A program made the translations under genes and the position numbers. A model generated the notes under the pieces. It was not told the origin of the DNA. It saw only the letters and a list, made by a program, of their open reading frames with translations, and did not search any database. A stretch of DNA of 54,330 bases, the filler included, from Jimgerdemannia flammicorona (Eukaryota), in the NCBI GenBank assembly GCA_003990765.1. It is 3 parts of 3 records of this genome, joined end to end, with 100 filler letters (N's around TTAATTAATTAA, not from the genome) between each part and the next. Parts side by side here need not be neighbours in the genome. Positions count along the whole stretch, not along the records: positions 18,149 to 36,190 come from RBNJ01002321.1; 2 more parts are not named here. One strand, given 5' to 3'. The first letter of the stretch is position 1. Each line of letters starts with the position of its first letter. Positions 12,056 to 54,029 of the stretch are shown here, in pieces.

Positions 12056-12422
12056 GTCACTGGAAATCTTTTAGCTATACGTTCATTGCCATATCATATA
12101 CCACATCTCTGAAGCAACCATTCTTACACAGTTGTTTGAATCAATAAATATTTTGTAATTCGGCAAACAACAATCAACTCCACCTCTTAGTTTACAAGAA
12201 AGACGTGAAGGTGGCCAAAGGAAGGTTGCAAACTCTACACATGCGAGGAATGGTCGTTTAGAGAGATTATCAAAACAGACATCACCAGCTGCGACAACGT
12301 CCCAAACCTCCCTAGAGTTTATCCGCACCTTGCGTATGTATTTTGATCTTTCCATAGTTTACCCGGCCGTATTTATTTCTATACGATAATGGCGACAGGC
12401 GTCTTCGTTGGAGATAGAAAAC
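12056..12422 (+). repeat. Dispersed repeat, copy 2 (paralogous to 6075-6477)
   Basis: Same conserved blocks as copy 1, with indels. Confidence 0.8.
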
Positions 12423-14598: not shown

Positions 14599-15978
14599 AT
14601 GGCCGGATCGTTACCCTCCATTGTCAATAGCCGCCGTAACGCGCACTCTAGCCTCGCCATCTTCTCCCGCGTGGCCTGGTCCCGCCTCGTCGAATCCCGA
14701 TGGACCAAACTTCTACCCATCCTGGCCCTGCTGCAATGGGCCGGGATTGTGTGGCTGGAGGCGCTTATCTACCGCGACAACATGACCGAGTACGGCGTCC
14801 TCCTTGTGTATGTCAACCAATACCAGAACGACACCAAGCTCGTCCACGCCGTCAACAGCTTCGATAACCGCGCCGCAGAGAGCTTCTTCTTCATTATGTT
14901 TGTTTTCTTGTTGTTCCTCTTCGCGGTCGACGCCGTCATCCGACAGAACTCGATCCAGCTTTTCGCCTACGGCGCCGTCAATATTCTCTGCATCTCTTTC
15001 GGCATTTTCCAAATCTACGAGGCCGTCAAGTGGTTTGGAAATCTCGATGACATTCAGAAGCACTACCACGACGAGCTCAATCCCACCCTCCCAGACATCC
15101 CAGCCTACCACCTTGGTTTTCAGCGCCTCTACGCCTGTGGCGTCTTAGCTGTTAACCTCGTCACCACCATCTTCCTCATCTTCCTGGTCTGGAAACTCTA
15201 TGTTCAGTTCGGCTGGAACGTGTACAAGCGCATTGGCGCCGACGTCCGCATGCAAGCCATGTACCGGCAGTACCAAATCTTCCTCGTCTGCCTCAAACTC
15301 ACCCCCCTCTTCCAAGCCCTCTTCCACGCCTTCTACATCGGCATCCTCATCGAAAATGATTTCGGCAACCCCCCCCCCGCCACATCCATCTACCACATCA
15401 TCATCACTGTCCTGATCCCCCTTTCCTTCCTCTTCATCGGTTCCGCCGCTCGCCGCGAGATACGCTGGGCCATGATCGCTTATGTCCTCCTCAACCTGAG
15501 CGTCATCATCAACTTTGGCCTCATACTCAGTGACTTCAGTTCGTCCGCCACATGGATTTTCCTCATAGCATGTGGCGTCATCGACTCCCTTCTTAACGTC
15601 GCCTATGCCCTCATCGTCGCAAATAACTTTGGTAAAGGACTCAAAGATACCATCCGTCTCCTCGGCGAAGAGGATTCGGATAGGTTTGGCATCTCTCATA
15701 GGGTGAGTATCGACGGCGGCACCGCTGAGCATCAGGAACAGCTGCGCGCTGCGCTCGCTGACCACGAGGAGAAATACGAGGTCCCGGACAGCGAAGACGA
15801 CTACGACGCGGCTTGGGCAATTGACGTCAACCAAGGAAACAACACCGCATCGAACGTACCGCAGTCGCTCGACGCAGGATTGGGGCCACCACCTCTCCCA
15901 CCGCCGCATAGGGTGCCCATCAGGACCTTTACGGACGGGTCGGAGAAGTACAAGACGTCCGACGCGTGGAACGGTTGA
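14599..15978 (+). CDS. Multipass membrane protein, UPF0658 (Golgi membrane protein)-like, intronless
   Basis: ATG at 14599, about 8 hydrophobic helices, motifs DAVIRQNSIQL and WKLYVQFGWNVYKRIGADVRMQAMYRQYQIFLVCLKL, NNFGKGLK after the last helix, strongly GC3-biased codons. Confidence 0.75.
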   Translation: MAGSLPSIVNSRRNAHSSLAIFSRVAWSRLVESRWTKLLPILALLQWAGIVWLEALIYRDNMTEYGVLLVYVNQYQNDTKLVHAVNSFDNRAAESFFFIMFVFLLFLFAVDAVIRQNSIQLFAYGAVNILCISFGIFQIYEAVKWFGNLDDIQKHYHDELNPTLPDIPAYHLGFQRLYACGVLAVNLVTTIFLIFLVWKLYVQFGWNVYKRIGADVRMQAMYRQYQIFLVCLKLTPLFQALFHAFYIGILIENDFGNPPPATSIYHIIITVLIPLSFLFIGSAARREIRWAMIAYVLLNLSVIINFGLILSDFSSSATWIFLIACGVIDSLLNVAYALIVANNFGKGLKDTIRLLGEEDSDRFGISHRVSIDGGTAEHQEQLRAALADHEEKYEVPDSEDDYDAAWAIDVNQGNNTASNVPQSLDAGLGPPPLPPPHRVPIRTFTDGSEKYKTSDAWNG

Positions 15979-18148: not shown

Positions 18149-18379
18149 GCTAGCAAACTTGTATAAATAACCCAGTATCTTCGAGTGAATAAACCTCAGA
18201 TCGAAATAGTTCAAAGCAAAGAGATAGCAAAGGAACTAGTAAGCCTGCGGGCAGATACACTTCGAACTCACCCACCCTCCCCTGCAACTTCAAGAAGACT
18301 CTGCGAGAGTCAGAACAGTCAAGTTTTCAAGATACAGAAATCCGACGTACTTTCAAGAGTAAGCATCCGCTACGTTACA
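18149..18379 (+). mobile_element. 3' part of an LTR (solo or 3' LTR) related to the A/B family
   Basis: aacttgtataaataacccag...gagtgaataaacctcag resembles 28014-28058 (TATA box plus AATAAA). It ends in GTTACA at 18379 with no PBS after it, and retains CpGs. Confidence 0.6.
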
Positions 18380-18720
18380 CTAGCTACTTTATTCTCTATT
18401 TATATTATCTTATAAAAAAAATAAACTATTTGCTATTTTAACTATAATACTAAAGTCTTTTTTTTTAGTTTAGTCTGTCTTACTCTAGTTTGTACTTATT
18501 TTACTTATTGGAGATATATAAGATCTACTATATCTAATTCAACTATAGCTTTATCTTTTATTTAGCTACTACTTTTATTATTATATATCTTCTATTATAC
18601 CAAATTATTAGATCTTTAATTATATATATCTTTAATATTAAGATATATAAATTATAGATATAAATATAAGTATATCAATATATTTTAAATAGATAAAATA
18701 TTTTTAACAAGAGTCAGAAG

Positions 18721-19044
18721 TAGTACTCAAAATAAATTAAATTAAGATTTAATTTAATTCAAGTTTCAATTTAAACCTTAATTTTCAAAATATAATAACT
18801 TAATAAAAATATACAAAATTTAACTTATTAGATTTATTTTATTTAAAAGAATTTAGAATAATAAAAATTATTAAATTTGATATTTTAAAGTTAACTTTTA
18901 ATTTCAAATTAAATTAGACCTCAATTTGATTTAAATTTAATTTAATTTAAATTTAATTTAAATTAAAAATTTCTTAATTTAATTCAATTCAAATTAACCC
19001 CTATTTAATTAATTTAAATTGATTTAATTTATTTGAGAATACTA
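18721..19044. mobile_element. hAT-type MITE, heavily AT-converted copy
   Basis: Termini TAGTACTC... and ...GAGAATACTA, perfect 8-bp TSD GTCAGAAG (18713-18720 and 19045-19052), internal homology to 38205-38577. Confidence 0.85.
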
Positions 19045-22000
19045 GTCAGAAGTATATCATTATCTTATTAATACTTTTTTTTTTACTTTAATTATTAAAA
19101 AGCAATTAAAGTAATCTTTTATTAAATTGATAATTTTTCAGTTTTCAATTACTTTAGTATAAATATTTTTATCAGATATATCAGTATTAGTATCAATAAC
19201 TATATTGAGAATAAAACCTTCTATGTATAATAATAATAGTACTACTATAGTATACTATATATTACTCTAAATTTCTTATTTAGACTTTATAAATTGACTG
19301 AGTAGACTATAATTTTGATCTAATTTATGTTTGTTTATCATGATTCTCATCCATATATCCCAACTTCTCAAGGCCTTCTATCTCTCTAGATTACTGAAGC
19401 TAGCCCACAAGTATGATCCTGCAGATCCACTCTTCTAACTTTCAAGCTCTACCTCTATAATCTCCAAGACCAATCTCTTGCACTTTGCTAATCTCTGCAG
19501 CAGTCCGGCAATTCTGGCTCAGGGTGCTCCATACTGAGGAGAAGACTGGCACCATCATTGGCAAGTTATTGAAGATGTGGAGCACCAATGAGATGCCACC
19601 AAGAGGAGAGCAAGCGAGTGAGAAGAGGGTGGATGGTCATTTGATTGGTTGGGGCTGTGTAAACATCACGGGATATTGCTTTATTTATTTGTTTCGCTAG
19701 TTATTTCATTTTCATTCCCTTTGCACAGATGCACATCGCTCAAACAGACTCTCATCCCATGCCATCATGCATTGCAAAGATCAGCTCAAAATACCCAACC
19801 TAAAATCCGCACAGTAGACCTCAGTTCGCGCGGGGCTGCCCAAGTATATTTTACTTTCGAATACCTCACTCAAGGTATAAAAAGAAAGTTTATCCGCGTT
19901 TTTCGCGACATGCTTGCGTATTCGGGTGTGCTTCTGTTTCGGGCATTGTAGAATCCTGCGGTATGGTAAAGATATGGATGATGCGATCGACTGTATCATT
20001 CTTTATATGTATGGTGGTGAAGAAATGAGATAGTTACTAATTGGAGATGCCCATGGTAATAATAAAAAAAAAAAAATGCAAGCCAAGGGGAAAGGGTGGA
20101 TCATATTGTGGAAGGATAGGACGACCCTTAAGATTTTCTTTGCCTGGAATTAGGATATTTTCCCGGCACTTAAATGACGTGTCACTATATTCACGAGAAC
20201 TGTCGGCAGGTGACAAATTATTAAGCTACTCCAGTGTGTTATCAACAGAATGAATATAATCCAACTACTATCTGTATTGAAAATAGAAATTATAGTGGTT
20301 TTTGCATACTTGGTATAAAATCGCAAGTCTCAATAATATTTTGAGGGAGAGGCGCAGTGCTTTTGATGAACGACCGCCTCTAGTTCTGGTTTCAAACCAA
20401 GGGCTGCGGCACAATGACCTAGCTTTCACTCAAACATATTCGACACGGCACTATGAATGGATCAAATTCCGGCGGATGAAAAGTGTGGATTAAAATAGTT
20501 AACAGCGATAGACGAAAATCTCGTAGTTTATTATGGGCAATCTTTGAATGTATTCTATAAGGGCGATTATCAGAAGTGGCAGGAATAAAAATGGTTGACA
20601 CATATTTCTCGATCGCGAGTATCTGTAATGTCAATGAAAATAATCTGGACCCCCCCCTTGGAGCAGAATCACCGCATTAAACCATCTCGACACTGCGCCA
20701 GGCCTCAAAATAAATGATACTACCCAACCGTGCAAGCTAGGTCCACATTTTTTTCAGATTGCTAGCCGGACGGAACGAACAAAACGAATTGAAGGAGCAG
20801 TGCCGGGACTTCTTTACTTTGGATTATGCATAACCTTTTACTCATACCGACATCTAGAGAGAAGATGGCCTGTGATTGTTCTTATTCACTTGCGACAAAG
20901 GCCAAAGGAAACTCTCCTCCTCCTCAATGCAATAGAACGATACATCCATTTCAACGCTTCAACCGGCGAAAAATAAATAAACACTCTCCGACTTACTGAA
21001 ACGGAGAAACATTTCCGAATGCTACGGCTACGAGATCTGTTCGCTTGTGATAGGATTTCAAATCGCGCCGAAACAACTACCTCCAGTCAAAGCGGGAATA
21101 CATTGCGAGGAAAATAGAATACCGAAAGACTGTGAATCAATAAACCCAGAAAATCGAGTACCGACATGGAAAAACTGGTGAACTAATATGAGAAGTCCAC
21201 TAATTTCATCATATTGTGCAAAGGTCGATGTTGAAAAAAACGTATTTGCTCACTTAGCTTCGGCAAACATCCGAATTAGTCCCTGTTGTTGTATGTGCAA
21301 TCTCCTCCACTGGGCTTTTTCCAAGCCATTATTTCACACGATGTGATGCACCGCGTGCACGGTCTCGAGTTTGGAGAGGCAGAGCAAGTTTAACATGAAT
21401 TCCACAGTAGGGTGCGGTCAGAAGGGAGCTGCATTTGCACTAAAAATCAAGGCGTGATGTAATATCACTGCCGTACACACCGTCTGACCAAATCATTAAC
21501 CCTCCCGCCCATTAAACCATATCATTCTTGCTCGGCCCAAGGGACTTGTCAGTTGACACAGTTCGAGGTATGGGTAGAGTGACTTTCTGTTAGATACAGG
21601 TTGAATCCCGTTGCGTCAATGTCTGTTTACAACAAAGAATACCAATTCCATCGCGAGGAGGAAAATGAGGCAAAGCGGGCATGGAAAATGGTGATGGCAT
21701 CTTATCAAATGTAAAACGTAAAACGGATAACGTATGCTACGCTCCTTGACTCACTGATTATAAATACTTATACTTCCCACCCAAAGTCGAGACTGCTCAC
21801 CCACAACTAATACACAACAGGCCACATCACTTCACGAGAGAAGAGAATAATCTGAAATGCATTGCATATGTAAACATTTTGGCCAAAGACATGACAATAA
21901 ACCCCAGCGCGCCAACCAACCACAATATGAAAGAATTTCGCACACAAACCTCAATATTATACGGCCAAATGGGTAAAAATGATGGAAAAATGAAAAAGAA

Positions 22001-25635: not shown

Positions 25636-27441
25636 AAAGATGGCGTGCCTGTATCGGCAACAAGTTATCTTCGGGTACTGGTTAACACCCTACTCCCTGG
25701 CGAGGTGAACAACATCTTCCCAGATGGCATTTCTCCGAGTCGTTGTGATGTGCATGCTCTTGGATGTGCCATATTCAAGAAAATCCAGGCCACCTGTTTG
25801 CTAATCCTCGACCATGCCGACACCCTGAAGCGCGCACAAGATCCGAGTCGTGGTGACAATGAGGCTGTATATTTGTGAAAATTGTTTGCAGACGTTTCGT
25901 CAAGAAAAGGAACCACCACAAAGTTCTTAGTAACCTCTCATGAACCTCTAGGGTGGACTTTGGTTGAGACGGAAATCCCACTCCAAAGCTTCTGTTCAGA
26001 CATCAAGAGCGGTTACGACGTGTTCCTTCAAAATCTTAATATCCCGACAAGGGAGAGAATTAAGAAAGAGGTGAAGAAGATAAGGGAGGAGAAGAAGTGA
26101 AGAGAGGACGAGGCGAAGGCGATGGGGGTAGAGGAGGCGGAGAAATTGGACAAGGAGGCAGAAAGGATGAAAGAGGAGGCGAGGAAATTGAAAACGAGGT
26201 GAAAAGGATGAAGGATGAGGTGGCAAGGATGCAGGGTGAGGCGAAGAGAATGCGGGAGGAGGCGCAGAGGGGAGAGTCAAAGAAGATGAAGGAATTGGCG
26301 AAGGAGATGAAAGAGGCGAAGAGGGTGAAGGAGGTGTAAGTAGATCCCGACAGGTTGCTGCATGATCTTGTGAAGTGCGTCGACGCGACAAATTATTGAA
26401 GGTCATTGCCGGTGAATATTACCAAACAATACTTGAACAACCTCATGCAATAGACGACCTCAACAATTATTTTAAAACAACGATCGACGCAGCAGCGCTT
26501 CATCAGACCGGTCACGAAAGTGGAGATTAACAAAATCCGCAAACTTTTCGATCATGAGACCTCGATATTGATAAGGGCTTGCAACACCTATGTCATCTCG
26601 GGTTATTGCTCAAGGAGGGTGAGGAGCAATACAGGAATCACATCGCTGTTTGTAAAGTTGCGAAACAGCTCAATACTGTGTTCAAACTTCAAAAAAAAAT
26701 TGAGGCGAACCTGCATTATGCCGTGATGAAAGGTTACGTCGAAATCGTGAGGCTATTCGTAACTGAGCTCAGTGTGGAAGCCAACTCTGAGAAGATATCG
26801 GAGAGATGCCTCTGCACCGCGCCACGGAGAACGGGCACGTCAAAGTCATGAGGATGCTCGTGTCTGAAGTCAAAGTGGACATAAATGCTAAGGACGATAC
26901 TGGAAAGACGCCGCTACACTGGACCACCGCGAGCGTGCACGTGGAGGTCATGAGGTTGCTTGTGTCCGAGCTTGGGGCGAATGCCAACACCATCTACAGC
27001 ACCCCGTAGAGGATGGCCACGTGGAGATCGTGAGGTTGTTCCTTGCCAAGTTTGGGGCGAAGGCTAACACCAAGGACAACTACAATCGGACACCACTGCA
27101 CCATGCCGCAATACATGGGCATGTGAAGTCGTTAGATTGCTCATGGGTGAATTCAAGGCAGACGCCAATGACAAAGACGGATGGACCTCACCGCACTTGG
27201 CCGCGGTGCACGGAAAGATTGAGATTGTGAGGTTGTTTTTGGTCGAGTTCCCAACACTAAGGACAACAACGGACAGATGCCATTGCACTGGGCCGCGAGG
27301 GTCGGGTGTGTCGATATTGTGAAGTTGCTGATTGCCGCTTCCAAGTGGACACCGACGCCACTGACACCACAAAGAGACCTCGCCAAGATAAAAGATAAGA
27401 ATGAAGCTATGAAGTACCTCAGGGAAATAGGATGTAAATAA
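25636..27441 (+). pseudogene. NLR-like (STAND/NB-ARC + ankyrin repeats) pseudogene
   Basis: Walker-B-like CLLILDHAD, RNBS-B-like KFLVTSH, a charged coiled coil (26050-26340), winged-helix/MHD-like LQHLCHLGLL...YRNHIAVCKVAK, and about 6 ankyrin repeats (DDTGKTPLHW, NYNRTPLHHAA, KDGWTSPHLAAVHG). Many stops and frameshifts; no P-loop found. Confidence 0.7.
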
Positions 27442-27665
27442 ATTTCTGAGCTAATTAAAAGATTTTTCCACAAAAATCCATTGACTGTCAGATATATCTT
27501 AGCTGAACTGTTAAGTTATCAATGATAACTCCAAAGGCAATGTTGTTTTTGAGATTTTATTTATTTAATTACAAAATAGTATTTTATATAATTAAAAATA
27601 ATATTTTAATTAATAAAATTTAATATAATAGTTTATTTAATTTTAATATATTACAATATATATAT

Positions 27666-29104: not shown

Positions 29105-32100
29105 ATTTCAAAATCAACATGACTTTTCAGCTCACAAGAACCCACAGTTAAACTGGATACATTTGATACAACACCAACCTCTGCCACCATAGGAGAACCA
29201 GTCATCACTAGCATTTAGACAAGAAGAGAAGTAATTACCTCAAGGCTTGCCAACTACCCAGCATCAGAAGGATCTCAACTAGAAGCAGGAGGCAGTACAG
29301 CCTGAAATCCCCAACCAGATCAACCAGATCTACCAGATCAACCAGACAATATAGGCAGCCCTGCTAGAATTTTTAGAGAACTTGTACAAGAACTAGAAGA
29401 CTTTATTACCCGGACCCAATACTTTACAGCCAGACACCCCACACCAGCCCCACCAATCTCACCAATAGAACCCCTACCACAACCTCTTGCAGAACTAGAA
29501 GTAGCTCTTACAAGAATACCTAGGCCTATTCTACCTCACCCAAGGACCAGAACACCATTTTCAAGATACCCAAGCACCGCCATCTCCAGTGACAGTTCAG
29601 AAAGTGAATCAGAATCAGAATCTGAACCTGAACCAGAGTCAGGAGAAAGTGATGACGAAATGGCCACCTCATTGCCAATCTTTGCAGGATATCCAGAGGA
29701 GGACCCCAGAGAATTCCTTGATGGAATTGAAGGAATTGCAGCCTTGAGAAATCTTTCAGATGAAAGAAAGATCACTATCTACAAAGCCCAGCTTAGAGAA
29801 CCAGCTAGAGGAATTTTCTACCGAACAGCAAACAACCCAGATTCAGAACTAGCAAGACAGATACAAGCAGCACTCTCTGATGAGCTAGAATATGAGGCCA
29901 TGGTCCACTGGCTCATCGAAAAGTATGCAGGAAATGAAACCTGCCACAAGGCTTAGAAATCTATCATGGAAATGAAGATGAACCTTGGAGAATCACCCAG
30001 AGCCTTCTTCATAAGAATCTAGAAGAGAATGCATTCTGCTGGGTTTAATGCCACCAATCAAGACATCATAGGTCCAATGACCTTCATGAATGGAATTCCT
30101 CTGAATATTGCCCAGCATGTCTGCACCTTAGGCATCAGAAGGTCTGAAGAGCAGGTAGATGCAGCCCAAGGATTCTTTGATATCAGGCAAGAAACCACCT
30201 GGAGTGATCATGACAAAAAGGAAGATAAAGAAGATATCCTGGTCAAGGCCCTGCAAGGACTCCTTCAAGGACAAGAAAGATCCAAAGAAAGGAGGCCAGC
30301 CAAGGAAGGAAAGAAGGATAGAAGCGAAATTCAAGATCTTAGCTCCAAGTTAGACCGATTGGTTGGTCAGATTGAAAAACTCACTACACGCGAAAATCAG
30401 AGCTACCAAGACAACAGAGGATACCCACCACAGAGGAGCCAAGGTTATCCATCAAGAGATAATAGGAATTACCAGTAAGAAGAAAGAAGGTACCCTGTCC
30501 GAGACAGAGCCCAAGTCCAATGCTTCCACTGTGGACAATTCAGACACTATGCCACTGAATGCGACAACAAAAGAAGTGACTGAAGGGACTCAGAACCACC
30601 AAACCGAAGGAATGACACTCAGTACAAGAAGACTGAAGTCCATCCTATTGAAGATTTCGAGGAAGCAAGCAACAGTGAAGACTACAGTGACCTAGACTTG
30701 TATCCTATCAAGGTTACCACCTGAAAGACAGTTTACCCAGCAGAAAAAAGAAAGAGACCTATGGAAAGACCATCCAGGAACATCAGCAGAAGAATTATTC
30801 AAGAAGAAGATGAAGAGCATAAGGAGGAATAAGTTGAAACACCTCCCCGAACCCCCTCACCCTTTGTGCCCAAGACAAATGAATTACCACCCAAAGATAA
30901 AGAAATGGAACAAGAAGAATGGGAACCTGCTGCTCCAAAGTCTAAGAAAAAGTATACTCCAAAGACCATGCCTAGAGATATTTACAATGAAGCCTGGCAG
31001 AAGATTCAAGAAGCCAAGATGGAAGTTCCTCTCCTGCAGTTCTTGCAATTGACACCAGCTGGAGTTTGAAACAAATTGCTGAGAACTACAAGGTCTAGCA
31101 CTGGCCAAGTTCCAATCCCACAGCAAGAACCAGCTCCTATTCCTGTTCAAGCAGCTGAAAGACATGTCAGCACCTATTTACATGGAGACATTGGAGGACA
31201 AAAAGCAAAAATCCTCATAGATACAGGAGCAGCTGTCTGTATCATTGCCAAACAATTCTTGGACACCCTCCAATGGCCCATTGATGGACCATCCAACCTC
31301 AGCATCATAGTAGCAGATGGAGCCTGAACTCAACTCCTTGGAGAAGTACAAAATATCACCATTGGAGCCATTGCAGGAGAAGCCAAAGGATGCCCTACAT
31401 GTCTCAAGAGACACAAGTGTTCCAAGCACTTCTCCAAGATCATGGGAACAAGGAAATCGCCTGGCACAGCCTGCCCAGAATGCAGAAGAAAGAAGAAGAA
31501 ATGCAGACATGTTCTGAAAACACCTGCAACCGAAGCTGCAGAAGTACAAGCAATTTGGGGTCAAGAATCATCTGAGGAAGAAGAAACTTCTGACCAAGAA
31601 GTTCCTGAACAAGAAGTGCCTGATGAAGAAGAAGTCCCCAAACTCATCCCCTGGGATGACCCTTGCTGGATACCACCTGAAGATAATGACCCCTGGAATA
31701 CAGAGGAAGGACCCAGTACCATCACCATAATCCCCAAGAAAGAAACCCACCAAGAGAAAGCTTTCCGGCTAGGAAGATGTCCACATCAAATGGTCTTCCA
31801 TTCTCCCTGAGACTATTGCTATCAGTATCATCTATTGGACCAACAAGAAAGACAGAGACCCCAGAGACCAGAACCCCCAACTACTCTTGCACAATCTACC
31901 ACCTTTCAGGAAGTCACCACAAGGTTACAAAGTCGATTTAGAGGACAAGGCTTCTTTACCCGAACAGAAATATACCCCTTGTCTACCCTTCCCCCAACCT
32001 ATGATCAAGATGAGTACCGATTCCCAAAACAACAAGAGATAAATAGCTGGGAACATCATTTCCAAGCAATGGGATATTGCAACCATGGGAGACACCCTGA

Positions 32101-32489
32101 TTGCCGAGACTGCAGACATCAGAAGATTCATCTCAGTCATGATGTTGCAGTGCACACCTTGAAGAAAGGAGATAACTGAAGCCAGATTCGAAAAAGTCAG
32201 ATTCAAAGAAGGCAGACCAAGAAGCCTGGAAAAAGAACTCTCAAGATCTATGATTTGGGAGAAGATATCCTAACTCTCATCAGACATGCAACCTGCCAAG
32301 GATGGGCAGAAGATGCCACCAACTTCATGGAAGCCCTTGACCCTATAGGAAGAAGGGGAATCAATTACCTTCGAGATCCCTCTACTGGAGCCAGATGGCC
32401 ACACCTCAACCTTAGAGCTTAGAGGCTTTCTGCCAGTGGAGCTTCAGCCTTAAGAAAGCCCGAACTCAGCAAGGATATTGCCCAGTATG

Positions 32490-32885
32490 CCCTACTGCAC
32501 CCCAAGGCCAAACCCCTGACCAAAGCCCACCCAGAGGATGTAGGATATCATCTTCACAGCCTGGAGGATGAATCTATCAAGCCTGGAAAAACCTTCATAG
32601 TCAGAACCAGATTAGCCATGCAGCCACCTCAAGGAGCTTATATTCAACTGACCTCAAGGTCCAGACTTGCAAGACAAGGAATAACTGTAGAAGGAGGAAC
32701 CATTGACCCTGGATATACAGGCGAAATCAAGGTTATCCTACACAACAGCAGTGCAGAATAGCACCAAATCATTAGAGGACAGAAGATTGCCCAAGTAGTC
32801 TTCATGAAGGTCAAGACCCCACAGTTACAGGAAGTTTCTGAACTAACTGAAGGAACAAGACAAGCCAAGAGATTTGGAAGTTCAG
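32490..32885 (+). pseudogene. Trimeric dUTPase domain inside the pol of copy A, between protease and RT
   Basis: All five motifs are recognisable: EDVGYHL, LTSRSRLA, GGTIDPGYTGEIKV, GQKIAQ, TRQAKRFGSS. Confidence 0.9.
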
Positions 32886-35769
32886 ATAGGAAAGAGGTAC
32901 ATCTCCTTCAAGTCAACCACCTCAAGAGGAATGTTCCCCAGCAAGTATACCGGCAGCCAGTCAGACTACACAAGAATCTCATCCTGGAGCCTGGAGAACA
33001 AACCACATTCGAAATCTTTGTACCACCCGATCCCAGAAACCTTTTCTTCAAGCCGAAGGAAGATATTCCACACCTGGATATAGAGGGACACACATTCTCT
33101 GACAAGATGAACCCAGTACACTCCCGAGGAACCAACCAAAGTTGGGAGACCATCATCTTGCCAAAAGGAACCATCATAGGACATCTGGTGCCTTTTCTCA
33201 ACCAAACTCATAGGGAAGTTTATGAACTAAACCTATCGGGAAATAGCAAAAGGTCCCAGAAGAAAGGAAAGACCCCTCTGTGACCTAGGAGACAGTGAAG
33301 CCTTCCACCAATATCAGAGAAGAATTAACATCTCAACAATAGCAATAACTTGTAGAACTTCTCAACAAATATCAAGATATCTTCACTACCAATTATGGCA
33401 ACCTGCCATACAACCCATCATATCACCACAGTATAAATACAGGAAGTGCAACACCCATCTGGCAGAAACCCTATAGAATACCCCATCATTTGAAAACATT
33501 CGAAAAGGAGCATATCCAAGAACTCTTAGACAATGGAGTCATCCGACCCTCTACCAGCCCCTGGGCCAGCCCTATACTTATTGTACCAAAGAAAGGAGAA
33601 TGGAGACTCTGTGTGGATTACAGAAAACTCAATTCAGTCACTGAAAAGGATGCTTATCCTTTGCTCAGAATCAATGACCTTTTGGACCAGCTATAAGATG
33701 CCAGATATTTCAGCAGTATGGACCTCTTCGCAGGATTCCATGAGATCCCCATAGTCCTTAAGGACATTCAAAAGACAGCCTTCCTTGCTCTAGGAAAACT
33801 ATTTGAATACCTCTGAATGCTCTTCGGACTTTGCAATGCACCCCCCACCTTCCAGAGGATGATGAATTCAGTCTATGCCCCTTTGATCCACCACTATCTG
33901 ATTGTATACATGGATGATTCCAACATCTATTCAGCAAATTTCGAAGAACACCTGCACCACCTAGAGGAATTCTTCAAGCTCACTCACAAGAATTACTTGA
34001 GATTGAATGTAAGGAAATGCTACTTTGGAAAACAGAAACTCAAATTCCTTGGATTCATGGTCTCAAAAGAAGGAACTCATACAGACCCAAAGAAAACTGA
34101 GAAGATCAACAATTGGCCAGTACCCAAGACTCCAAAGGAAATACTATCATTCTTGATACTAGTATCCTACTACAGAAGGTTTATCAAAGATTTTGCCCAA
34201 ATCGCTGCCCCAATCTGAATCCTTCTCAAGAAAGGAATACCATTCAAATGGACAGAATCACAGAAAAAAGCCTTCAGAGAACTCAAGAACCACATGACTA
34301 CAGCACCAATCCTTGTGTGCCCCAATCTACAGAAGCCATTCATCTTGTATATAGATGCCTCCAAAGATGGCCTAGGAGCAGTTCTAGCCCAAGAAGGACC
34401 AGACCAACAGCACCATATGATAGCTTATGCAAGCAGAGCTACCAATCAGCAGCAAATGAACTATGGTAGCACTAAACTGGAATGCCTTGCAGTTATATGG
34501 GTGGTCACCCTGTTCAAGCATTACCTCATCGGAAAAAGGTTCACCCTGATCACAGACCATGCAGCCCTCAAATGGCTATTCAACTGCAAGGAACCTACCA
34601 GAATTCTAGCCCAATGGATCCTTATCCTTCAGGATTACAAAATCACCATCATTCACAAAGCAGGGAAAGCTCACAACAATGTTGATGTACTTTCCCACCA
34701 ACCCCAATGAATCAGAAGAAGGGTGTCCCGAGGAACTACACCCTAAAGGAAGCTCCTCAGACCATCAAGGAACAAGAAAATCTCATCTGACAAGAACATC
34801 AGAAAGCCCACCAAGGACAGACATGCATAGAAGACAAGATTCGAAAACAACATCAACATTGGCCCCACCTCAGAACCCAAGTCCGAGACATCATTCAGAA
34901 GTGTGACATCTGTCAGAAGTATCAAGGAAAGAAGAACTATCAAGCCCCTCTACAACTGATCCCTGCACCTACTCACATCTTTCAAAGATGGGGAGTAGAT
35001 GTAATTGGACCTCTACCAGTTACACCAAGAAGAAACAAATACATTCTTGTATTTGTAGAACATCTGACCAAGTGGCCCAAGGCTTTCTCAATGGAAATCG
35101 CAGATGCCTTAACCATTGTAGGCCTCCTCCATGGACTTATACTCAGATATGGACCTCCAGAAGAACTCATCTCTGACCAAGGCACAGAATTCATCAACAA
35201 CATAATTACAAGTTATGCCCAAATTCACAAGATCCACCTCAAAAAGACCACATCATACTACCCCCAGACCAATGGTATGACAGAAAGGATGAACCAGACC
35301 ATCAAGAAAGGACTTGCCTGAGTCAACTCTACTAATTAGGACCTCTGCTTACCTGAGATCCTATGAGAAATTTGGAATACCCCTGCTACATCCACCAAAC
35401 AAAAGCCATTCGAAATGATGTTTGCCAAGAGAACCAGAACTGCTGACCATGAGAATCTCAGAAACCTCCTCAAGAAGGCAGAACAGTTACGAAATCAAGT
35501 CCAAGGACAGATTATCAAAGCCCAGGAAAGACAAAAGAAGTACTATAACCAAAAACAGAAGGATCAAGAGATCAAGATTGGAGATCAAGTCCTAGTTTGG
35601 AGAAGCATGATTGAGACAAACTTTGCTGCCAAACTGGAACCAAAATGGGAAGGACCTTATCTTGTATACAACATCAGAGGAACCAGCATCTATTTAAGAA
35701 GCATAGATGGATGAACCCTGAGAACACTAGTACACATCAATTGTCTCAAGATATACTTCCCCTCACACC

Positions 35770-36190
35770 ATGAATCAGAGAATTGACAACTGCCTCCAAA
35801 CTCTTATTCTCAGTTCCCTCCAAGCTCTATCAGTTCCCCTGCCTCAGTTCCGGGAACCCAATGGAATATATCTTCAGAGAATCTGAGTTCATCAAGAGAA
35901 CCTCACCTTGGCCGAGAGACTACTCCAGGTCCACCAGCTATAGGTATATTATGCAATTGGAGAACAATTGCAGAATCTCTCTCTCCTGGACCTAGCCTAT
36001 GTCCGAAACACCACTGGCCTGAACAGAAGGAATACTACTGCCGCAGACAGACTATATACAATATATAAACGAAATCCTTCTGCCTTAATCCAGGCCCAGT
36101 TTTCCCTGAATGACCTCCAAAGGATGACACAGCCCACCTACCTCAGCATTATTCACCAAGTGGAGATCCTATTTCCTGAGGAAGAAGAAG
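35770..36190 (+). pseudogene. Accessory ORF downstream of integrase in copy A, unknown function
   Basis: ATG at 35770 overlaps the end of pol. MNQRIDNCLQTLILSS...VYYAIGEQLQN...RNTTGLNRRNTTAADRLYTIYKRNP...EILFPEEEE, with two transition-type stops. Conserved in copy B. Confidence 0.7.
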
Positions 36191-37749: not shown

Positions 37750-39513
37750 TATAATCCTCACTCCAAAATCTGGCAACATTGTGCTAAGATATGAGATGAT
37801 GTTGTTTGTAATTATTGCAGATAAAAAATTAAGATGCACCTATTGACTTGTTTGACACACACATGATATTGTTTCATCCACCCCCATAAACTGCACCAGC
37901 CAGAAGTTCAAAATGCTTAGTGGTATGATCTTGAACATGAATCGATACATAAAAGACAAGCACTCTGACAAAATCAAAAAGAATACAGAGACAAATAAAA
38001 TCAACATCTAAGCTGTAGTGGGTATATTTATCCAATTGCCCAACTATTTCTATACCAACAATACTGTTTAATCAAAAATATTTAGCCATACTCTTGGCAG
38101 AATTTCAAAATCAGCTCATTCACTGGATTGTATGCACAGACCAGCCATTCACAACCATTGAGAGTGATCAATTGCATAGTATCTTTGGCCTCCTCAAGCA
38201 TGATTAGTGCTCCCAATAAATCGAATCAAATCAAATTTGGCCCAAACTTGATTTGATTTGATCAAATCAAGGGTCCAATTCGATTTGATTCAAATCGAAT
38301 CAAAGATCCAATTTGATTCGAAGTTCGATTCGAACCTTAATTTTCAAAATGTAATAACTCGACGAAAAATCATCTAAATTTAACATACTTTAGCTTATTA
38401 GATTCACCGTATTAATGTGATTCTAACAAGCTAAAGCTAAAGTACGTTAGATTTGGATGAGTTTATGCTGAGTTATTGCATTTTGAAAATTAGGGTTTGA
38501 ATCAGACCCTCAATTCGATTCAACTTTTGATTTGATTTGAATTGATTTGAATTGATTCGACTCATTTGGGAGCACTAAGCATGATTTATATTTGCCAAGT
38601 GCCGATACTATTTGCAAAGATGTTCTGGAGGCCTATAGAAAGGAGCATGACAATCTCTACTGAACACTTCAGGTAAAATAAGGGCAGCATCATGACCTTT
38701 GCAAGCTGAATTATATAAAAGAGCTCACCAATTTAACCTTACATTCAATAAGTAAAATTCAGCAGGCAAAATTTCATTTATGATCGACATATAGACATCC
38801 CCCAATGCAATTTCATTTCTGGGCATTACCAGTCATTGGATTGACCTCGATTGGCAGCTTAAATCTCTCACCCTTGACTTTGTCAAACTTGCTAGCTCTC
38901 ATTCTGGAGACAACATTGCAGATGCTTTTATTAGTTGTATCTGGGAGCTTGGGATCACAACCAAGGTAAAAAAAGGGGAGCTTACCATTAGGTCGGTATT
39001 TTGAGGGAGGTCCTTAAATAAAACAGATTTTGTTGGTTATTTATTTTCGCATAATTCGCCAACCAAATATTTCAAGTACAGATTTTGGCCATTACAATGG
39101 ACAATGCCACAAACAATTCAATATTTTTCCAAGTTTTAGCAGCCAGCCTCAAATAGGAAAATGTGACCTTTAGTGCAGAAAGCTGCCATGTGTGATGTCA
39201 GGCCCACATACTGAACCTTGCTGTTCAGGACTATCTTATGCACATAGACAAAACATCTGAGAGAGGAGGGGCCCTGGGTATAATTTTCAAACTACACAAA
39301 CTGATTGTGTCAGTCCAATCATCCCCACAATGATGAGACAAATTCGCTGTATAGTGTAGGGCAATCAGTTTAGCCCCGAAAGAGCTTATATTGGACATCT
39401 GTATACATTGGAACTCAACATTTGCAATGATCCAGCATGCACTGGAGTTTGCTGTGGTATGTATTCTTTTTTTCTTCAGTTGGCTGAAGCAACTGTTTTG
39501 GATAATAGAAGAT

Positions 39514-39544
<31 letters not shown>

Positions 39545-40610
39545 CCAATAGATTCAATAATGGCTACTGATAAGGAAATATGGACCGAGGCTCTAGGTGA
39601 AAGTGAGTGGGACATACTTAGGAATTTTGTCAGAGTTTTGGAAGTAAGTGGTGATTACTCTGACTCTATACTCATTTTGTCTACCTCTGCATAATGTAAT
39701 ACCTCATCACATATAACTACCAGTGTTTTGACAATTGTACAAAGGATATAGTCAAACAAATGACTCCAACAATAAGCTCTGCAATACTAGTATACAACCT
39801 TCTGATTGACCAGCTAGAGGACAAGCTCAAGGATAGGCTAGAGGGTTGCAGTGATTTACGGTTAAGCCCAGATCAGAGAGATACTGTGGAGGTTGCTTTA
39901 AGCAAGCTTAGAAAATACTACTCCCAAACAGATACCGCCATATACTCAATCAGTACAGGTATATTGATGTCAGCATGTGGCCATTGCCTCTTCCAAAACA
40001 GAGAAAACCCCACAAAAACTCACTCTCCTTTTCTTCAAACAGTGCTAGACCTATGCTTAAAGCTACAATATCATAAAGATCAGGGCTGGGAGCAGTACTT
40101 CATTGAGAGAACCAAGCAGGCCATAATCAAAGTGTACTGAAAAAACTACACACTGCCACAAGATTCCAGCCAAAGTCTGGATGAATATACTGAGGGATCC
40201 CTTCTGTCCCACATTTACTTCAGCAGAAAGAGGAAGAGGGAGCCATCAGTGAAAGAGCTGTTGTCAATAGATGAACTTACCATTTACCTTGCTAGCAACT
40301 ATATGGTTCTGCTGGAGGGTGTAGAGGTGCTCAACTAGTAGAAGGTGGGTTGTCAGGCAGGCATTAGGCCAATTTAACTCACCAATATAACCACTGCTCT
40401 ATCTACCAGGGCATGCAGCTGCATCAAATGGACTTCTCCAGCCTATATAGTATGGCTTGGGACTACCTGGCAATTCCTGCCTCCAGCACTCCCATTGAGT
40501 GGGTGTTCTCAGATGGAGTAGACCTCGTTGTCCCAAAGAGGTATGTGCTGAATACTGAGACAATCTGGACATGTATATGTCTGAAGTCTTGGTGGGGCTC
40601 GGGCTGCTAA
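37750..40610 (+). mobile_element. hAT (Ac-like) transposase gene, intron-containing, degenerate
   Basis: BED-finger-like SKIWQHC...VVCNYC; ISFMIDI*TSPNAISFLGITSHWID; HSGDNIA; ITMDNATNN; CQAHILNLAVQ; LDICIHWNSTFAMI; dimerisation domain MAWDYLAIPASSTPIEWVFS. Confidence 0.9.
38205..38577. mobile_element. hAT-type MITE inserted in the hAT transposase gene
   Basis: TIRs TAGTGCTCCCAA and TTGGGAGCACTA, perfect 8-bp TSD AGCATGAT (38197-38204 and 38578-38585), subterminal (T)CGAAT/ATTCGA-type pentamer arrays. Confidence 0.93.
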
Positions 40611-46492: not shown

Positions 46493-47008
46493 TTAGTCAT
46501 CATTCTAGTGTGGGTAAGTATCTTCTGCATCAATACCTGTTCCATCATCTTTATCATCTGTATCATGGTCACTCCATTCCAAGGGTTCTTCTTCTTCTTC
46601 TGGGAATAAGATTTCAACAGCATTGACAATGCTCAAGTAGATGGCTAGGTTCATTCCTCATGTATCATACCAGGAGAATTGTACTTGTATCAGAGCTGCA
46701 GGGTTTTGCTTGTAAAGTGTGTAGAGCCTGTCAGCAGCAGTAACATCTCTCCTTGATAGTCCTGTGGTATTTCTGATATATGTTTGTTCTGGGACTGGGA
46801 GGTTCTGCAATTGTTCCCCAATTACATAATAGGCCTGAAGTAGATGGACCTGTAGCAATCATCTGGCCAGGACAAGATTCTCTTGATGAATCTGGATCTT
46901 CTAGAGAGTGTTCCCATTGACTTCTCGAAATTGGGGTAGGGGGACTGGCAGTGATTGAAATGAGCTGAGAATAAGAGTCCGAAGGCAGTTGTCAACTCTC
47001 TGATTCAT
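46493..47008 (-). pseudogene. Accessory ORF of copy B
   Basis: MNQRVDNCLRTLILSS...AYYVIGEQLQNLPVPEQTYIRNTTGLSRRDVTAADRLYTLYKQNP...EILFPEEEEEPLEWSDHDTDDKDD, with scattered stops. Confidence 0.7.
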
Positions 47009-49884
47009 GATGTGGGAAGAGGTATATCTTGAGGTAATTGATGTGTACTGGTGTTCTCAGGGTTTATCCATCCATGCTTCTTAAATAGATGCTGGTTCCT
47101 CTGATATTATGTACAAGATAAGGTCCTTCCCATTTGGGCTCCAATTTGGTGGCAAAGTTTGTTTCAATCATGCTTCTTCAAACTAGTACTTGATCTCCAA
47201 TCTTGATCTCCTGATCCTTCTGTCTTTGGTCATAGTACTTCTTTTGCTTTTCTTGGACTTTGATAATCTGATCTCAGGTCTGATTATGTAACTGTTCTGC
47301 CTTCTTGAGAAGATCTCCAAGATTCTCATGGTCAGCAGTTCTCATTTTCTTGGCAAACATCATTTCAAATGGCTTTTGTTTGGTTGAGGCAGTAGGGGTA
47401 TTCCAAATTTCCCATAGGATCTCAGGTAAGTAGAGATCCCAATTGGTAGAATTGACTTAGACAAGTTCTTTCTTGATGGTCTGGTTCATTCTTTCTGTTA
47501 TGCCATTGGTCTGGGGATAATATGATGTGGTCTGTTTGAGATATATCTTGTGAATTTAAGCATAACTTATGATTATGTTGTTGACAAATTCTGTGCCTCG
47601 GTCAGAGATGAGTTCTTCTGGGGGTCCATATCTGAGTGTGAGTCCATAGAGAAGGCCTACTATGGTTAGAGCATTAGCAATTTCCATTGGGAAAGCCTCA
47701 GGCTACTTGGTCAGATGTTCTACAAATACAAGGATATATTTTTTTCTTCTTGGTATAACTAGTAGAGGTCCAATTATATCTATTCCCCATCTTTGAAAGA
47801 TGTGAGTGGGTGGGGGAATTAGTTGCAGAGGGGCTTGATAGTTCTTCTTTCCTTGATACTTCAGGCAGATGTCACATTTCTGAATGATGTCTTGGACTTG
47901 GGTTCTGAGGTGGGGCCAATGTTGATATTGTTTTCGAATCTTGTCTTCTATGCATGTCTATCCTTGGTGGGCTTTCTGATGTTCTTGTCAGATGAGATCT
48001 TCTTGTTCCTTAATGGTCTGAGGAGCTTCCTTTAGGGTGTAGTTCCTTGGGACACCCTTCTTCTGATTTATTAAGACTGTCAGGAAAGTATATCAACATT
48101 GTTGTGGGCTTTCCCTGCTTTGTGAATAATGGTGATTTTGTAATCCTAAAGGATAAGGATCCAGCAGGCTAGGATTCCAGTGAGTTTCTTGCAGTTGAAT
48201 AGCTATTTGAGGGCTGCATGATCTGTGATAAGAGTGAATCTTTTTCCAATAAGGTAATGCTTGAACAGAGTGATCACCCATATGACTGCAAGACATTCCA
48301 GTTTGGTGCTACCATAGTTCATCTGCTGCTGGTTGGTAGCTCTGCTTGTATAAGCTATCACATAGTGCTGTTGATCAGGTCCTTCTTAGGACAGAACTGC
48401 CCCAAGACTATCTTTAGAAGCATCTGTATACAAGATGAATGGCTTCTGTAGATTGGGGCACACAAGGATGGGTGCTCTAGTCATGCAGTTCTTGAGTTCT
48501 CTGAAGGTTTTTTCCTGTGATTCTGTCTATTTGAATGGTACTCCTTTCTTGAGAAGGATTCGGATTGGGGCAGCAATTTGGGCAAAATCCTTGATAAACC
48601 TTCTATAGTAGGATACTAGCATTAAGAATGATAGTGTTTCCTTTAGAGTCTTGGGTACTGGCCAATTGTTGATCTTCTTGATTTTCTTTGGGTCTACATG
48701 AGTTCCTTCTTTTGAAACCATGAATCTTAGAAATTCAAGTTTCTGTTTCCCAAAGTAGCATTTCTTTGCATTCAATCTCAAGTGATTCTTGTGGGTGAGC
48801 TTGAAGAATTCCTCTAGGTAGTGCAAGTATTCTTCAAAATTTGTTGAATAGATGTTGGAATCGTCTATATATACAATCAGACAGTGGTGGATCAAGGGGG
48901 CATAGACTGAATTCATCATCCTCTGAAAGGTGGGGGGTGCATTGCAGAGTCCAAAGGGCATTCAGAGATATTCAAACAGTTTTCCTAGAGCAAGGAAGGC
49001 TGTCTTTTGAATGTTCTTGGGGTCCATAGGGATCTTATGGAATCCTGCAAAGAGGTCTATACTGCTGAAGTATCTGGCATATTGTAACTGATCCAAGAGA
49101 TCATTGATTCTGGGCAGAGGATAGGCATCCTTTTTAGTAACTGAATTGAGTTTCCTATAATCCATGCAGAGTCTCCATCCTCCTCTCTTTAGTACAATAA
49201 GTATAGGGCTGGCACAGGGGCTGGTAGAGGGTTGGATGACTCCATTGTCTAAGAGTTCTTGGATGTGCTCTTTTTCAAATGTTTTCAAGTAATGGGGTAT
49301 TCTATAGGGTTTCTGCCAGATGGGTGTTGCATTTCCTGTATTTATACTGTAGTGATATAATGGATTGTATGGCAGATTGCCATAATCAGTAGTGAAGATA
49401 TCTTGATATTTATACTAGTTATTATTGTTGTTGAGGTGTCAATTCTTCTCTAATATTGGTGGAAGGCTTCACTGTCTCCTGGGTCACAGAGGGGCCTTTC
49501 CTTTCTTCTGGGACCTTTTGCCATTTCTCAATAGGTTTAGTTCATAAACTTCCCTATGAGTTTGGTTGAGAAAAGGTACCAGATATCCTATGATGGTTCC
49601 TTTTGACAAGATGATGGTCTCTCTACTTTGGTTGGTTGCTTAGGAGTGTACTGGATTCATCTTGTCAGGAAATGTATGTCCCTCTATGTCCAGGTGTAGG
49701 ATATCTTCCTTAGGTTCAAAGAAAAGGTTTCTGGGGTTGGGTGGTGCAAAGATTTCGAAGGTAGTTTGTTCTCTGGGCTCCAGGATGAGATTCTTGTACA
49801 GTCTGACTGATTGCCAGTACACTTGCTGGGGAACATTCCTCTTGAGATGGTTGACTTGAAGGAGATGTACCTTCTTCCTATCTG

Positions 49885-50275
49885 AACTTCCAAATCTCTT
49901 AGCTTGTCTTGTTCCTTCAGTTAGTTCAGAGACTTCCTGTAACTGTGGGGTCTTGACCTTCATGTAGACTGCTTGGGCAATCTTCTGTCCTCTAATGATT
50001 TGGTACCATTCTGCACTGCTGTTATATAAGATAACCTTGATTTTGCCTATATATCCTGGGTCAATGGTTCCTCCTTCCACTATTATTCCTTGTCTGGCAA
50101 GTCCAGACCTTGAGGTCAGTTGGATATAAGCTCCTTGGGGTGGCTGCATGGCTAGTCTGATTCTGACCATAAAGGTTTTTCTAGGCTTGATAGATTCGTC
50201 CTCCAGACTGTGAAGATCATATCCTATATTCTCAGGGTGGACTTTGGTTGGGGGTTTGGTCTTGGGGTGCAGCAG
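49885..50275 (-). pseudogene. dUTPase domain in the pol of copy B
   Basis: ENIGYDLHS, LTSRSGLA, GGTIDPGYIGKIKV, GQKIAQ, TRQAKRFGSS. Confidence 0.9.
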
Positions 50276-53200: not shown

Positions 53201-54029
53201 CACATACTTTTCAATGAGCCAGTGAACCATGGCCTCATATTCTAGCTCATCAGACATTGCTGCTTGTATCTGTCTTGCTAGTTCTGAATCTTGGTTATTT
53301 GCTGTTTGATGGAAAATTCCTCTGACTGGTTCTCTGAGCTGAGCTTTGTAGATGGCAATTTTTCTTTCATCTGAGAGATTTCTCAAGGCTGCAATTCCTT
53401 CAATTCCATCAAGGAATTCTCTGGGGTCTTCTTCCAGGTATCCTGCAAAGGTTGATAATGAGGTGGCCATTTTATTGTCACTTTCTTCTGATTCTGGTAC
53501 AAGTTCAGATTCTGATTCTGATTTACTTTCTGAACTGTCACTAGAGATGGGGATGCTTAGGTATCCTGAGGATGGTATTCTGGATCTTGGACAAAGTGAA
53601 ATAGGCCTAGGTATTCTTATAGGAGCTATTTCTGACTCAGTAAAGAGTTGTGGTAAAGGTTCTATTGGTGAGATTGGTGGGATTGGTGTGGGGTGTCTGG
53701 CTGTAAGATCTCAGGTTCACGTGATAAGATCTTCTAGTTCTTGTACAAGTTCTCCAAAATCTCTAGCAGAGCTGCCTATATTGTCTGGTTGATCTGGTTG
53801 GGGATTTCAGGCTGTACTGCCTCCTGCTTCTGGTTGGGATCCTTCTGATGCTGAGTAGTTAGCAAGTCTTGAGGTAATTACTTCTCTTCCTGTCCAAATG
53901 CTAGTGATGACTAGTTCTTCTATAGTGACAGAGGTTGGTGTTGTATTAAATATATCCAGTTTGACTGTGGGTTCTTGTGAGCTGAAAAGTCACATCAATT
54001 TGAAATTGATTCCTAGTTGAGCCTCCAAA

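Follow-up and report, generated by a model that had tools for sequence, protein, structure and literature searches.

Locus-dependent C-to-T decay beyond the borders of a MITE in Jimgerdemannia flammicorona and its probable link to DIM-2-type cytosine methylation

The MITE copies and the repeat that hosts one of them

The window, by which we mean the whole stretch of DNA analysed (54,330 nucleotides, filler included), consists of three joined parts of the genome of Jimgerdemannia flammicorona. The initial annotation compared two copies of a MITE, here called A and B (Table 1), read the difference between them as RIP-like hypermutation and considered what would follow if the host were an early-diverging fungus outside the Dikarya. 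The host is indeed such a fungus, a member of the Endogonales (Mucoromycota), and so ordinary Pezizomycotina RIP does not apply. The strings quoted from the two copies are located at 18769-18810 (A) and 38328-38370 (B).

Table 1. Positions of the elements and decay zones in the window
Feature	Position	Strand	Remarks
End of a very young LTR, Ty3/Gypsy-type element	18149..18382	+	9 CpG kept; 0-1 differences from five other copies
Patch, left part	18383..18712	.	Host repeat H; some 70% of its ancestral G/C now A/T; left edge cut by the young LTR
Left TSD of copy A	18713..18720	+	8 bp, GTCAGAAG
MITE copy A	18721..19044	+	Old subfamily (alpha) of a presumed hAT-type MITE family
Right TSD of copy A	19045..19052	+	8 bp, identical to the left TSD
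Patch, right inner zone	19053..19298	.	Host repeat H; all-context C-to-T
Shoulder	19299..19760	.	CpG largely gone, at about one hit per site (0.49 per cytosine); non-CpG load 0.20 as far as 19603 and 0.09 after it
Undecayed rest of the same H copy	19761..20400	.	CpG intact; internal age control
TSD of copy B	38197..38204 and 38578..38585		Perfect 8 bp, AGCATGAT, twice
MITE copy B	38205..38577	+	Young subfamily, chiefly CpG-decayed

Copy A has 324 bp, a GC content of 0.11 and no CpG, and copy B has 373 bp, a GC content of 0.31 and 12 CpGs. Both belong to a family with short TIRs, an 8-bp TSD, no coding capacity and a high copy number (61 pattern matches for the alpha type and 774 for the young subfamily), which we take to be hAT from the length of the TSD and the start of the TIRs. 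The 30 loci most similar to copy B gave a 424-bp, CpG-rich MITE consensus, and 29 of them have 8-bp TSDs. As had been claimed, the TSD of copy A survives, and it is perfect; the TIR ends, which were also said to survive, are recognisable but carry the same transitions (TAGTACTC vs TAGTGCTC). The site of the left TSD is single in the majority of the other copies of the host repeat, and reads GTCGGGAG.

Between copy A and the B-type consensus there are 38 transversions at 320 sites, and many of these differences are common to other AT-rich copies, which represent older subfamilies. The two copies therefore belong to different subfamilies and are not ancestor and descendant. Their use as a before/after pair is flawed for this reason, as it mixes subfamily divergence with decay, and the direct A-versus-B spectrum was dropped as a measure of decay.

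Two other features of the family were seen. In the alpha alignment, the MITE cores have recurrent 11-bp deletions near CAAATTTG palindromes, which suggests microhomology-mediated repair after cleavage. An ORF fragment at 39700-40140, 1.1 kb from copy B, has no Pfam match; from its motifs we presume that it resembles a fungal hAT transposase.

The right flank of copy A is part of another repeat, H (35 matches), which is about 2 kb long and occurs in at least 27 copies that are 66-85% identical to the window copy and have an observed/expected CpG ratio of about 1. It has no Rfam match, no clear ORF and no consistent codon periodicity, and it is a repeat family that escapes decay. The flanks of copy A had been described as AT-saturated, and this is so: positions 18385-19310 have a GC content of 0.15, no CpG, a TpA/ApT ratio of 1.17 and a (CA+TG)/(AC+GT) ratio of 0.61, values within the RIP range. 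This tract lies in a region, 1-23 kb, with CpG observed/expected mostly near 1; over the greater part of the right half of the window, which is rich in TEs, CpG is depleted (0.02-0.3). Elsewhere in the window, a long intronless ORF at 14599-15978 encodes a multi-pass membrane protein that belongs to no Pfam family, and one protein search (14599-15975) found no homologue; ankyrin-like coding repeats at 26700-27450 adjoin an AT-rich stretch near 27590.

Decay follows the locus and crosses the element border

When aligned with tolerance of transitions, other H copies span both the AT-rich tract and the empty MITE insertion site, and across the patch region they have 52-56% GC and intact CpGs. Their majority state was taken as ancestral and decay of the window copy was polarised against it. 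Within the patch (18383 to about 19300) the window copy has lost 89 of 101 CpG, 47 of 56 CpA, 46 of 79 CpC and 23 of 56 CpT cytosines, with A/T-to-G/C changes at 4 of 214 sites and transversions at 15 of 531. Beyond 19620, the losses in the same H copy are 12/54, 10/67, 4/62 and 2/38, with 10/304 A/T-to-G/C changes and 11/544 transversions. Non-CpG C-to-T changes therefore number 116 of 191 in the patch vs 16 of 167 outside it in one and the same element (Fisher p=4e-25), and transversions do not differ (p=0.43). Among the H copies, only the MITE-bearing one is decayed; the 22 others that cover the patch region, from 26 fetched, show none of it (highest 150-column bin 12/37), with the proviso that H copies were found by similarity search and heavily decayed ones may have escaped.

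The zones around the patch are nested. The non-CpG load changes at 19298 and 19603 (0.62, then 0.20, then 0.09) and the CpG load at 19339 and 19761 (0.88, then 0.49, then 0.15). The patch has at least 900 bases, its left edge being hidden by the LTR and an assembly gap. C-to-T and G-to-A changes are balanced without strand clustering (runs p=0.68), and the trinucleotide contexts display no 5' TC or CC preference. The statement that simple CpG deamination is insufficient was borne out, as a CpG-only simulation gives losses of 0.55 at CpG and 0.10 at CpA vs the observed 0.88 and 0.84. Likewise, transversions do not scale with transitions in the patch or in the alpha MITEs. Neither age nor AT drift nor CpG-only decay can account for the patch.

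Copies of the MITE sampled by similarity to A are biased to AT-rich ones, and so the alpha subfamily was sampled with a degenerate pattern that accepts both states at every G/C. This gave 61 hits and none in the reversed control. From the 55 that were fetched, we analysed 35 alpha copies and 11 that belong to a sister subfamily (gamma), and set aside 9 as truncated or ambiguous. Polarised spectra by context, which the initial annotation had proposed for all family copies, were computed for copy A and the B set, and the non-CpG load for the alpha and gamma copies. Against the alpha reference, copy A has lost 12/16 CpG, 12/14 CpA, 3/5 CpC and 7/15 CpT cytosines, with no A/T-to-G/C change at 101 sites and 2 transversions at 151; the loss of 65% of its non-CpG cytosines is near the top of the alpha range. 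Across the 35 alpha copies and A, the non-CpG load is continuous from 0.05 to 0.66 and overdispersed (p=2e-30). The two strands carry parallel loads (r=0.80), and the load is related to flank GC (rho -0.68, p=5e-6) but not to transversions (rho -0.06). In alpha, then, the load is set by the locus and not by the family. The 11 gamma copies have loads of 0.21-0.42 with neither overdispersion (p=0.62) nor a link to flank GC (rho 0.28), and therefore the locus dependence is seen in alpha only.

The young subfamily is chiefly CpG-decayed. The 30 B copies have lost 662 of 2066 CpG (0.320), 50 of 953 CpA (0.052), 17 of 713 CpC (0.024) and 8 of 845 CpT (0.009) cytosines, with 9 A/T-to-G/C changes at 7602 sites and 28 transversions at 12,179. 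Their load is mildly overdispersed (p=0.011), and within single copies neither strand is favoured (p=0.79). The first 100 listed of the 774 pattern hits are, by eye, all lightly decayed. In simulation, the relative rates of B at a 30-60x dose roughly give the patch spectrum; CpC (0.58) and CpT (0.41) in the patch are somewhat higher than the 0.49 and 0.32 predicted at dose 40. From transversions (about 2% in alpha, about 0.2% in B), the age of alpha is no more than about nine times that of B, which would imply a higher local rate in the patch and a lower one in the best-kept alpha copies. Per site, CpG transitions in the young B copies exceed transversions more than 100-fold; the vertebrate CpG effect is roughly tenfold.

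Element and adjoining host DNA share a locus-specific load. Decay reaches the DNA beside the element at the window locus and in the TSD pairs, and a taper around other MITEs is partly seen. Only 9 of the 28 TSD pairs of decayed copies are perfect (GC 0.28) vs 31 of 52 in young copies (GC 0.44), so the TSDs of decayed copies have generally decayed after insertion. The TSD pair of copy A is better preserved than in a simulation of independent post-insertion decay, in which it remained identical in 5.6% of cases, and identical with at least four G/C kept in 0.3%, and thus the MITE may postdate part of the decay. Of 228 flanks examined, 67 have usable host homologues. Those of ten decayed MITE ends, the window's own included, have C-to-T rates of 0.44 vs 0.22 for the reverse at the border and 0.22-0.28 vs 0.16-0.17 beyond 750 bp, and those of 56 young ends have no C-to-T excess (0.21 vs 0.21). 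Empty-site homologues were available for 13 of 26 elements, three of which align poorly; seven loci have excess decay, mostly flat across the host and not tapering, two have none and one is weak. A halo test on composition only (15 alpha/gamma and four B flanks) was not used as proof because CpG-rich distal parts had been selected and some sharp edges are later TE insertions. Seeding of the patch by the MITE is the leading but unproven explanation.

The LTR that cuts the patch belongs to a family of Ty3/Gypsy-type elements that are about 6.2 kb long and contain a dUTPase-like ORF, with 814 pattern hits for the LTR end; by eye, no chromodomain was present in the ORFs of one decayed copy. Among the 40 copies scored, the LTR ends share 97-100% identity, except for a few that extended into the flank, and both young MITEs and LTR ends are spared except at CpG. 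The outer flanks, which mostly start with ATAT, CTAT, ATAG or CTAG, were CpG-free over 400 bp in all 20 examined, with a GC content of 0.15-0.32 whatever the decay of the LTR itself; as background, 23 of 180 windows fall below 0.30 GC. The idea that the LTR makes the halo while itself being spared was rejected, as the decay of the flanks does not depend on that of the LTR (rho -0.14, p=0.56, 20 flanks). Most likely the family integrates into old decayed patches, in which case the patch in the window predates the LTR. Two other decayed Ty3-type elements with dUTPase lie in inverted orientation at 29111-36190 and 46588-54001. They are 86-92% identical and differ mostly by transitions, with CpG far ahead, CpA about equal to CpC and CpT lowest, and have no strand runs (z -0.15 to 1.3).

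Methyltransferase genes and related systems in other fungi

The genome was searched for C5-methyltransferases exon by exon, PF00145 alone having missed two loci. Six loci were found, all of them DIM-2-like or DNMT2-like. One cytosine methyltransferase exon is 100% identical to a J. flammicorona protein, the next relatives being from the same species, Endogone and Phycomyces. C1744 is DNMT2, and C58 and C2181 are presumably DNMT2 as well, judging by their motifs. The C8187 protein has RFD-like and BAH regions that match weakly, and its catalytic domain is intact (PCQ and ENV motifs); its best solved match is DIM2 (9BAP/9BAQ, identified as DIM2 in PMC11315935), with an E value of 4e-47 vs 6e-31 to DNMT1. 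C11271 is its paralogue and has an N-terminus that matches DIM2 only. C3657 is DIM-2-like by motifs and by a weak match to the C8187 protein, and two of its exons had no match among solved structures. By these comparisons C8187 and C11271 clearly encode DIM-2-type enzymes, and C3657 probably does. An HP1 chromo-shadow domain is present at C3142 (E 1e-16). The proposed search for DNMT1, DIM-2, RID and DNMT5 homologues has therefore yielded DIM-2-type genes, and no RID, canonical DNMT1 or DNMT5 was seen in this limited, exon-wise search. The DIM-2 type is apparently expanded and is accompanied by at least two DNMT2-like genes, and no canonical DNMT1 was seen despite the very strong CpG decay.

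Some features of the decay are those of canonical RIP and others are not. Transitions without matching transversions are found here. CpA is not preferred (CpG 0.320 vs CpA 0.052 in young copies, and 0.88 vs 0.84 in the patch, where both are saturated), and young near-identical repeats are not targeted by homology. Strand-coordinated mutation clusters are a feature of canonical RIP; they are absent from the patch, the B copies and the Ty3-type pair, although repeated rounds could hide them in old copies. The RID-dependent RIP of Pezizomycotina also leaves TpA-rich, AT-rich relics from C:G to T:A transitions only (PMC12543289). Unlike the process described here, it acts on CpA first, hits the duplicated sequence itself and removes young near-identical repeats.

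Other related systems involve DIM-2. In TEs of Dim2-positive Zymoseptoria tritici, 5mC is reported in the order CG > CA > CC > CT, which is the order of mutation in Jimgerdemannia (PMC8016269). The two also share a DIM-2-type enzyme, a TE-linked C-to-T decay and no need of a sexual cycle. However, Zymoseptoria is an ascomycete in which Dim2 is described as a mitotic mutator, with more than 98% of new C-to-T changes at CpA and CpG spared (PMC8016269), a pattern that is not found in Jimgerdemannia, a member of the Mucoromycota with several DIM-2 paralogues that mutates CpG first and then also CpC and CpT. The DIM-5/HP1/DIM-2 branch of Neurospora crassa is similar in being independent of RID, in reaching DNA beside a repeat and in that AT-rich DNA recruits the pathway, there through DIM-5 (bioRxiv 10.1101/115501). 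It differs in being premeiotic, triggered by homology and strongly biased to CpA according to that source, which also scored strands, whereas Jimgerdemannia has no strand-coordinated clusters. DIM-2 methylation in Neurospora is reported to prefer CT. As Zymoseptoria Dim2 mutates almost exclusively CpA and Neurospora DIM-2 methylation prefers CT, neither model enzyme gives the Jimgerdemannia spectrum directly.

Outside the Dikarya, Phycomyces blakesleeanus, of the same subphylum, has DIM2 together with DNMT1, and its TEs have CG and CHH methylation (PMC11258239; reviews PMC7862722, PMC13297926) that peaks at the TE ends and varies from copy to copy (PMC11258239). It is described at the level of the methylome only, and it possesses the DNMT1 that the exon-wise search did not find in Jimgerdemannia. 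RIP-like composition is also reported from Entomophthorales, for example Zoophthora radicans, which belongs to a different phylum and for which the signal is described by indices, without polarised spectra or mechanism (PMC11105155). In a kingdom-wide survey of 1,239 genomes, which used scaffolds >50 kb only, RIP-like signatures are reported from few clades of ascomycetes, and the score of J. flammicorona is 'no_rip' (PMC12543289). We found no description of such decay in Endogonales in the literature searched, most subscription journals being outside its scope.

Of the two possibilities raised by the initial annotation, non-CpG methylation or a RIP-like defence, the methylation branch fits because DIM-2-type enzymes are encoded; classical RIP does not, as the decay is CpG-first, lacks strand clustering and spares young repeats. 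The process operates in the manner of a methylation-linked decay that depends on DIM-2, and it falls outside canonical RIP.

A methylated domain and the alternatives to it

We consider it probable that cytosine methylation at this locus was locus-dependent and guided by heterochromatin, with C-to-T decay spreading past the transposon borders. In this reading, a small domain of methylated heterochromatin would have persisted for a long time within an otherwise CpG-intact gene island and left the patch as its scar. The events may be pictured as follows. An alpha MITE is seen to have inserted into a GC-rich, CpG-rich copy of H. The locus would then have turned heterochromatic, and DIM-2-type enzymes recruited through HP1 would have methylated cytosines, CpG most and then CpA, CpC and CpT, with the mark spreading a few hundred bases past the element. 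C-to-T change on both strands in that order, the outcome of which is visible, would saturate the inner zone and remove mainly CpG from the outer shoulder; the change of CpG to TpA would take two steps, one at CpG and the next at the CpA so created. By analogy with Neurospora, the rising AT content may reinforce the domain, so that some copies run away and their sisters stay near-intact. The later insertion of the Ty3-type element into the scar is observed as an association. Chemically, the change would be either passive deamination of 5mC with poor T:G repair or the work of an enzyme-assisted mutator; the >100-fold CpG excess in the young copies, far above the vertebrate level, strains a purely passive version.

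The same chemistry would apply if the patch came first, seeded from within the assembly gap, and an already decayed MITE inserted late as a passenger. This order of events is possible but we hold it to be unlikely. The perfect TSD with four G/C kept (0.3% under independent decay), the unseen left edge, the many alpha copies at the edge of larger AT tracts and the flat excess at other loci would all agree with it; on the other hand, the TSDs of decayed copies have generally decayed after insertion (with 9 of 28 still perfect), young MITEs do not choose pre-decayed sites and the load of copy A equals that of the patch. A different process, which we regard as rather improbable, is a homology-triggered, premeiotic RIP that acts through the DIM-5/HP1/DIM-2 branch without RID, in which the internal inverted and tandem repeats of the MITE, or neighbouring elements, would drive C-to-T bursts into adjacent DNA. 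DIM-2-mediated RIP in Neurospora is reported to hit mainly single-copy DNA by repeats (bioRxiv 10.1101/115501), and heterochromatic repeats are reported to need DIM-2 (PMC11969663). HP1 and DIM-2-type genes are present, the mutation excess over transversions is extreme and, in old copies, any strand bias would be lost over many rounds. However, that branch is described as strongly CpA-preferring (bioRxiv 10.1101/115501) and here CpG leads; moreover, the lightly mutated repeats, where single rounds should show, have neither strand bias nor runs, the flanks of young MITEs have no excess, and LTR flank decay is independent of LTR age.

The remaining alternatives are weaker still. A local mutator acting on heterochromatin that is independent of methylation or linked to oxidation (an AID/APOBEC-like deaminase or TET/JBP) would account for the very large rate excess and for the hits in all four contexts, but it is the 3' base that sets the context order, with CpG in the lead as methyltransferases would have it, and there is no 5' TC/CC preference and no strand runs, which makes it quite improbable. 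Classical RID-dependent RIP on duplicated sequence is largely refuted and very improbable: the transition-only excess on both strands and the RIP indices of the patch speak for it, but CpG is ahead of CpA, the first 100 listed young copies are lightly decayed and the LTR ends nearly identical, the load is set by locus and not by family, no RID-like gene is among the six C5-methyltransferase loci of the limited, exon-wise search, and the species is scored 'no_rip' (PMC12543289). Simple age, AT drift or an assembly artefact has a negligible probability; alpha is older than B by transversions, but one H element is part saturated and part intact with equal transversions, a context-free model fails, and other copies are collinear with the element, its TSD and the host.

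A more far-reaching version of the methylation reading can be offered as a tentative and somewhat doubtful possibility, namely that the Endogonales may have an active, RID-independent mutator with expanded DIM-2 paralogues. It would be aimed by chromatin and not by homology pairing, would feed itself on its AT-rich product and would spread several hundred bases into host DNA, leaving sharply bounded scars to which a Ty3-type element may have become specialised. An active mutator is favoured by the >100-fold CpG transition excess in the young copies.

RIP-like defence is regarded as restricted to a few clades of ascomycetes, and J. flammicorona is scored as being without it (PMC12543289). An all-context, locus-dependent and leaking C-to-T process that would be linked to DIM-2 in the Mucoromycota bears on the origin of RIP and on whether DIM-2 alone can be a mutator. 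The locus, with its decayed and intact copies of H and its nested zones, is a before/after pair, which makes the methylome predictions directly testable. If true, a DIM-2 mutator would be a genome defence equivalent to RIP outside the Dikarya and a candidate for the ancestral condition that gave rise to the DIM-2 branch of RIP.
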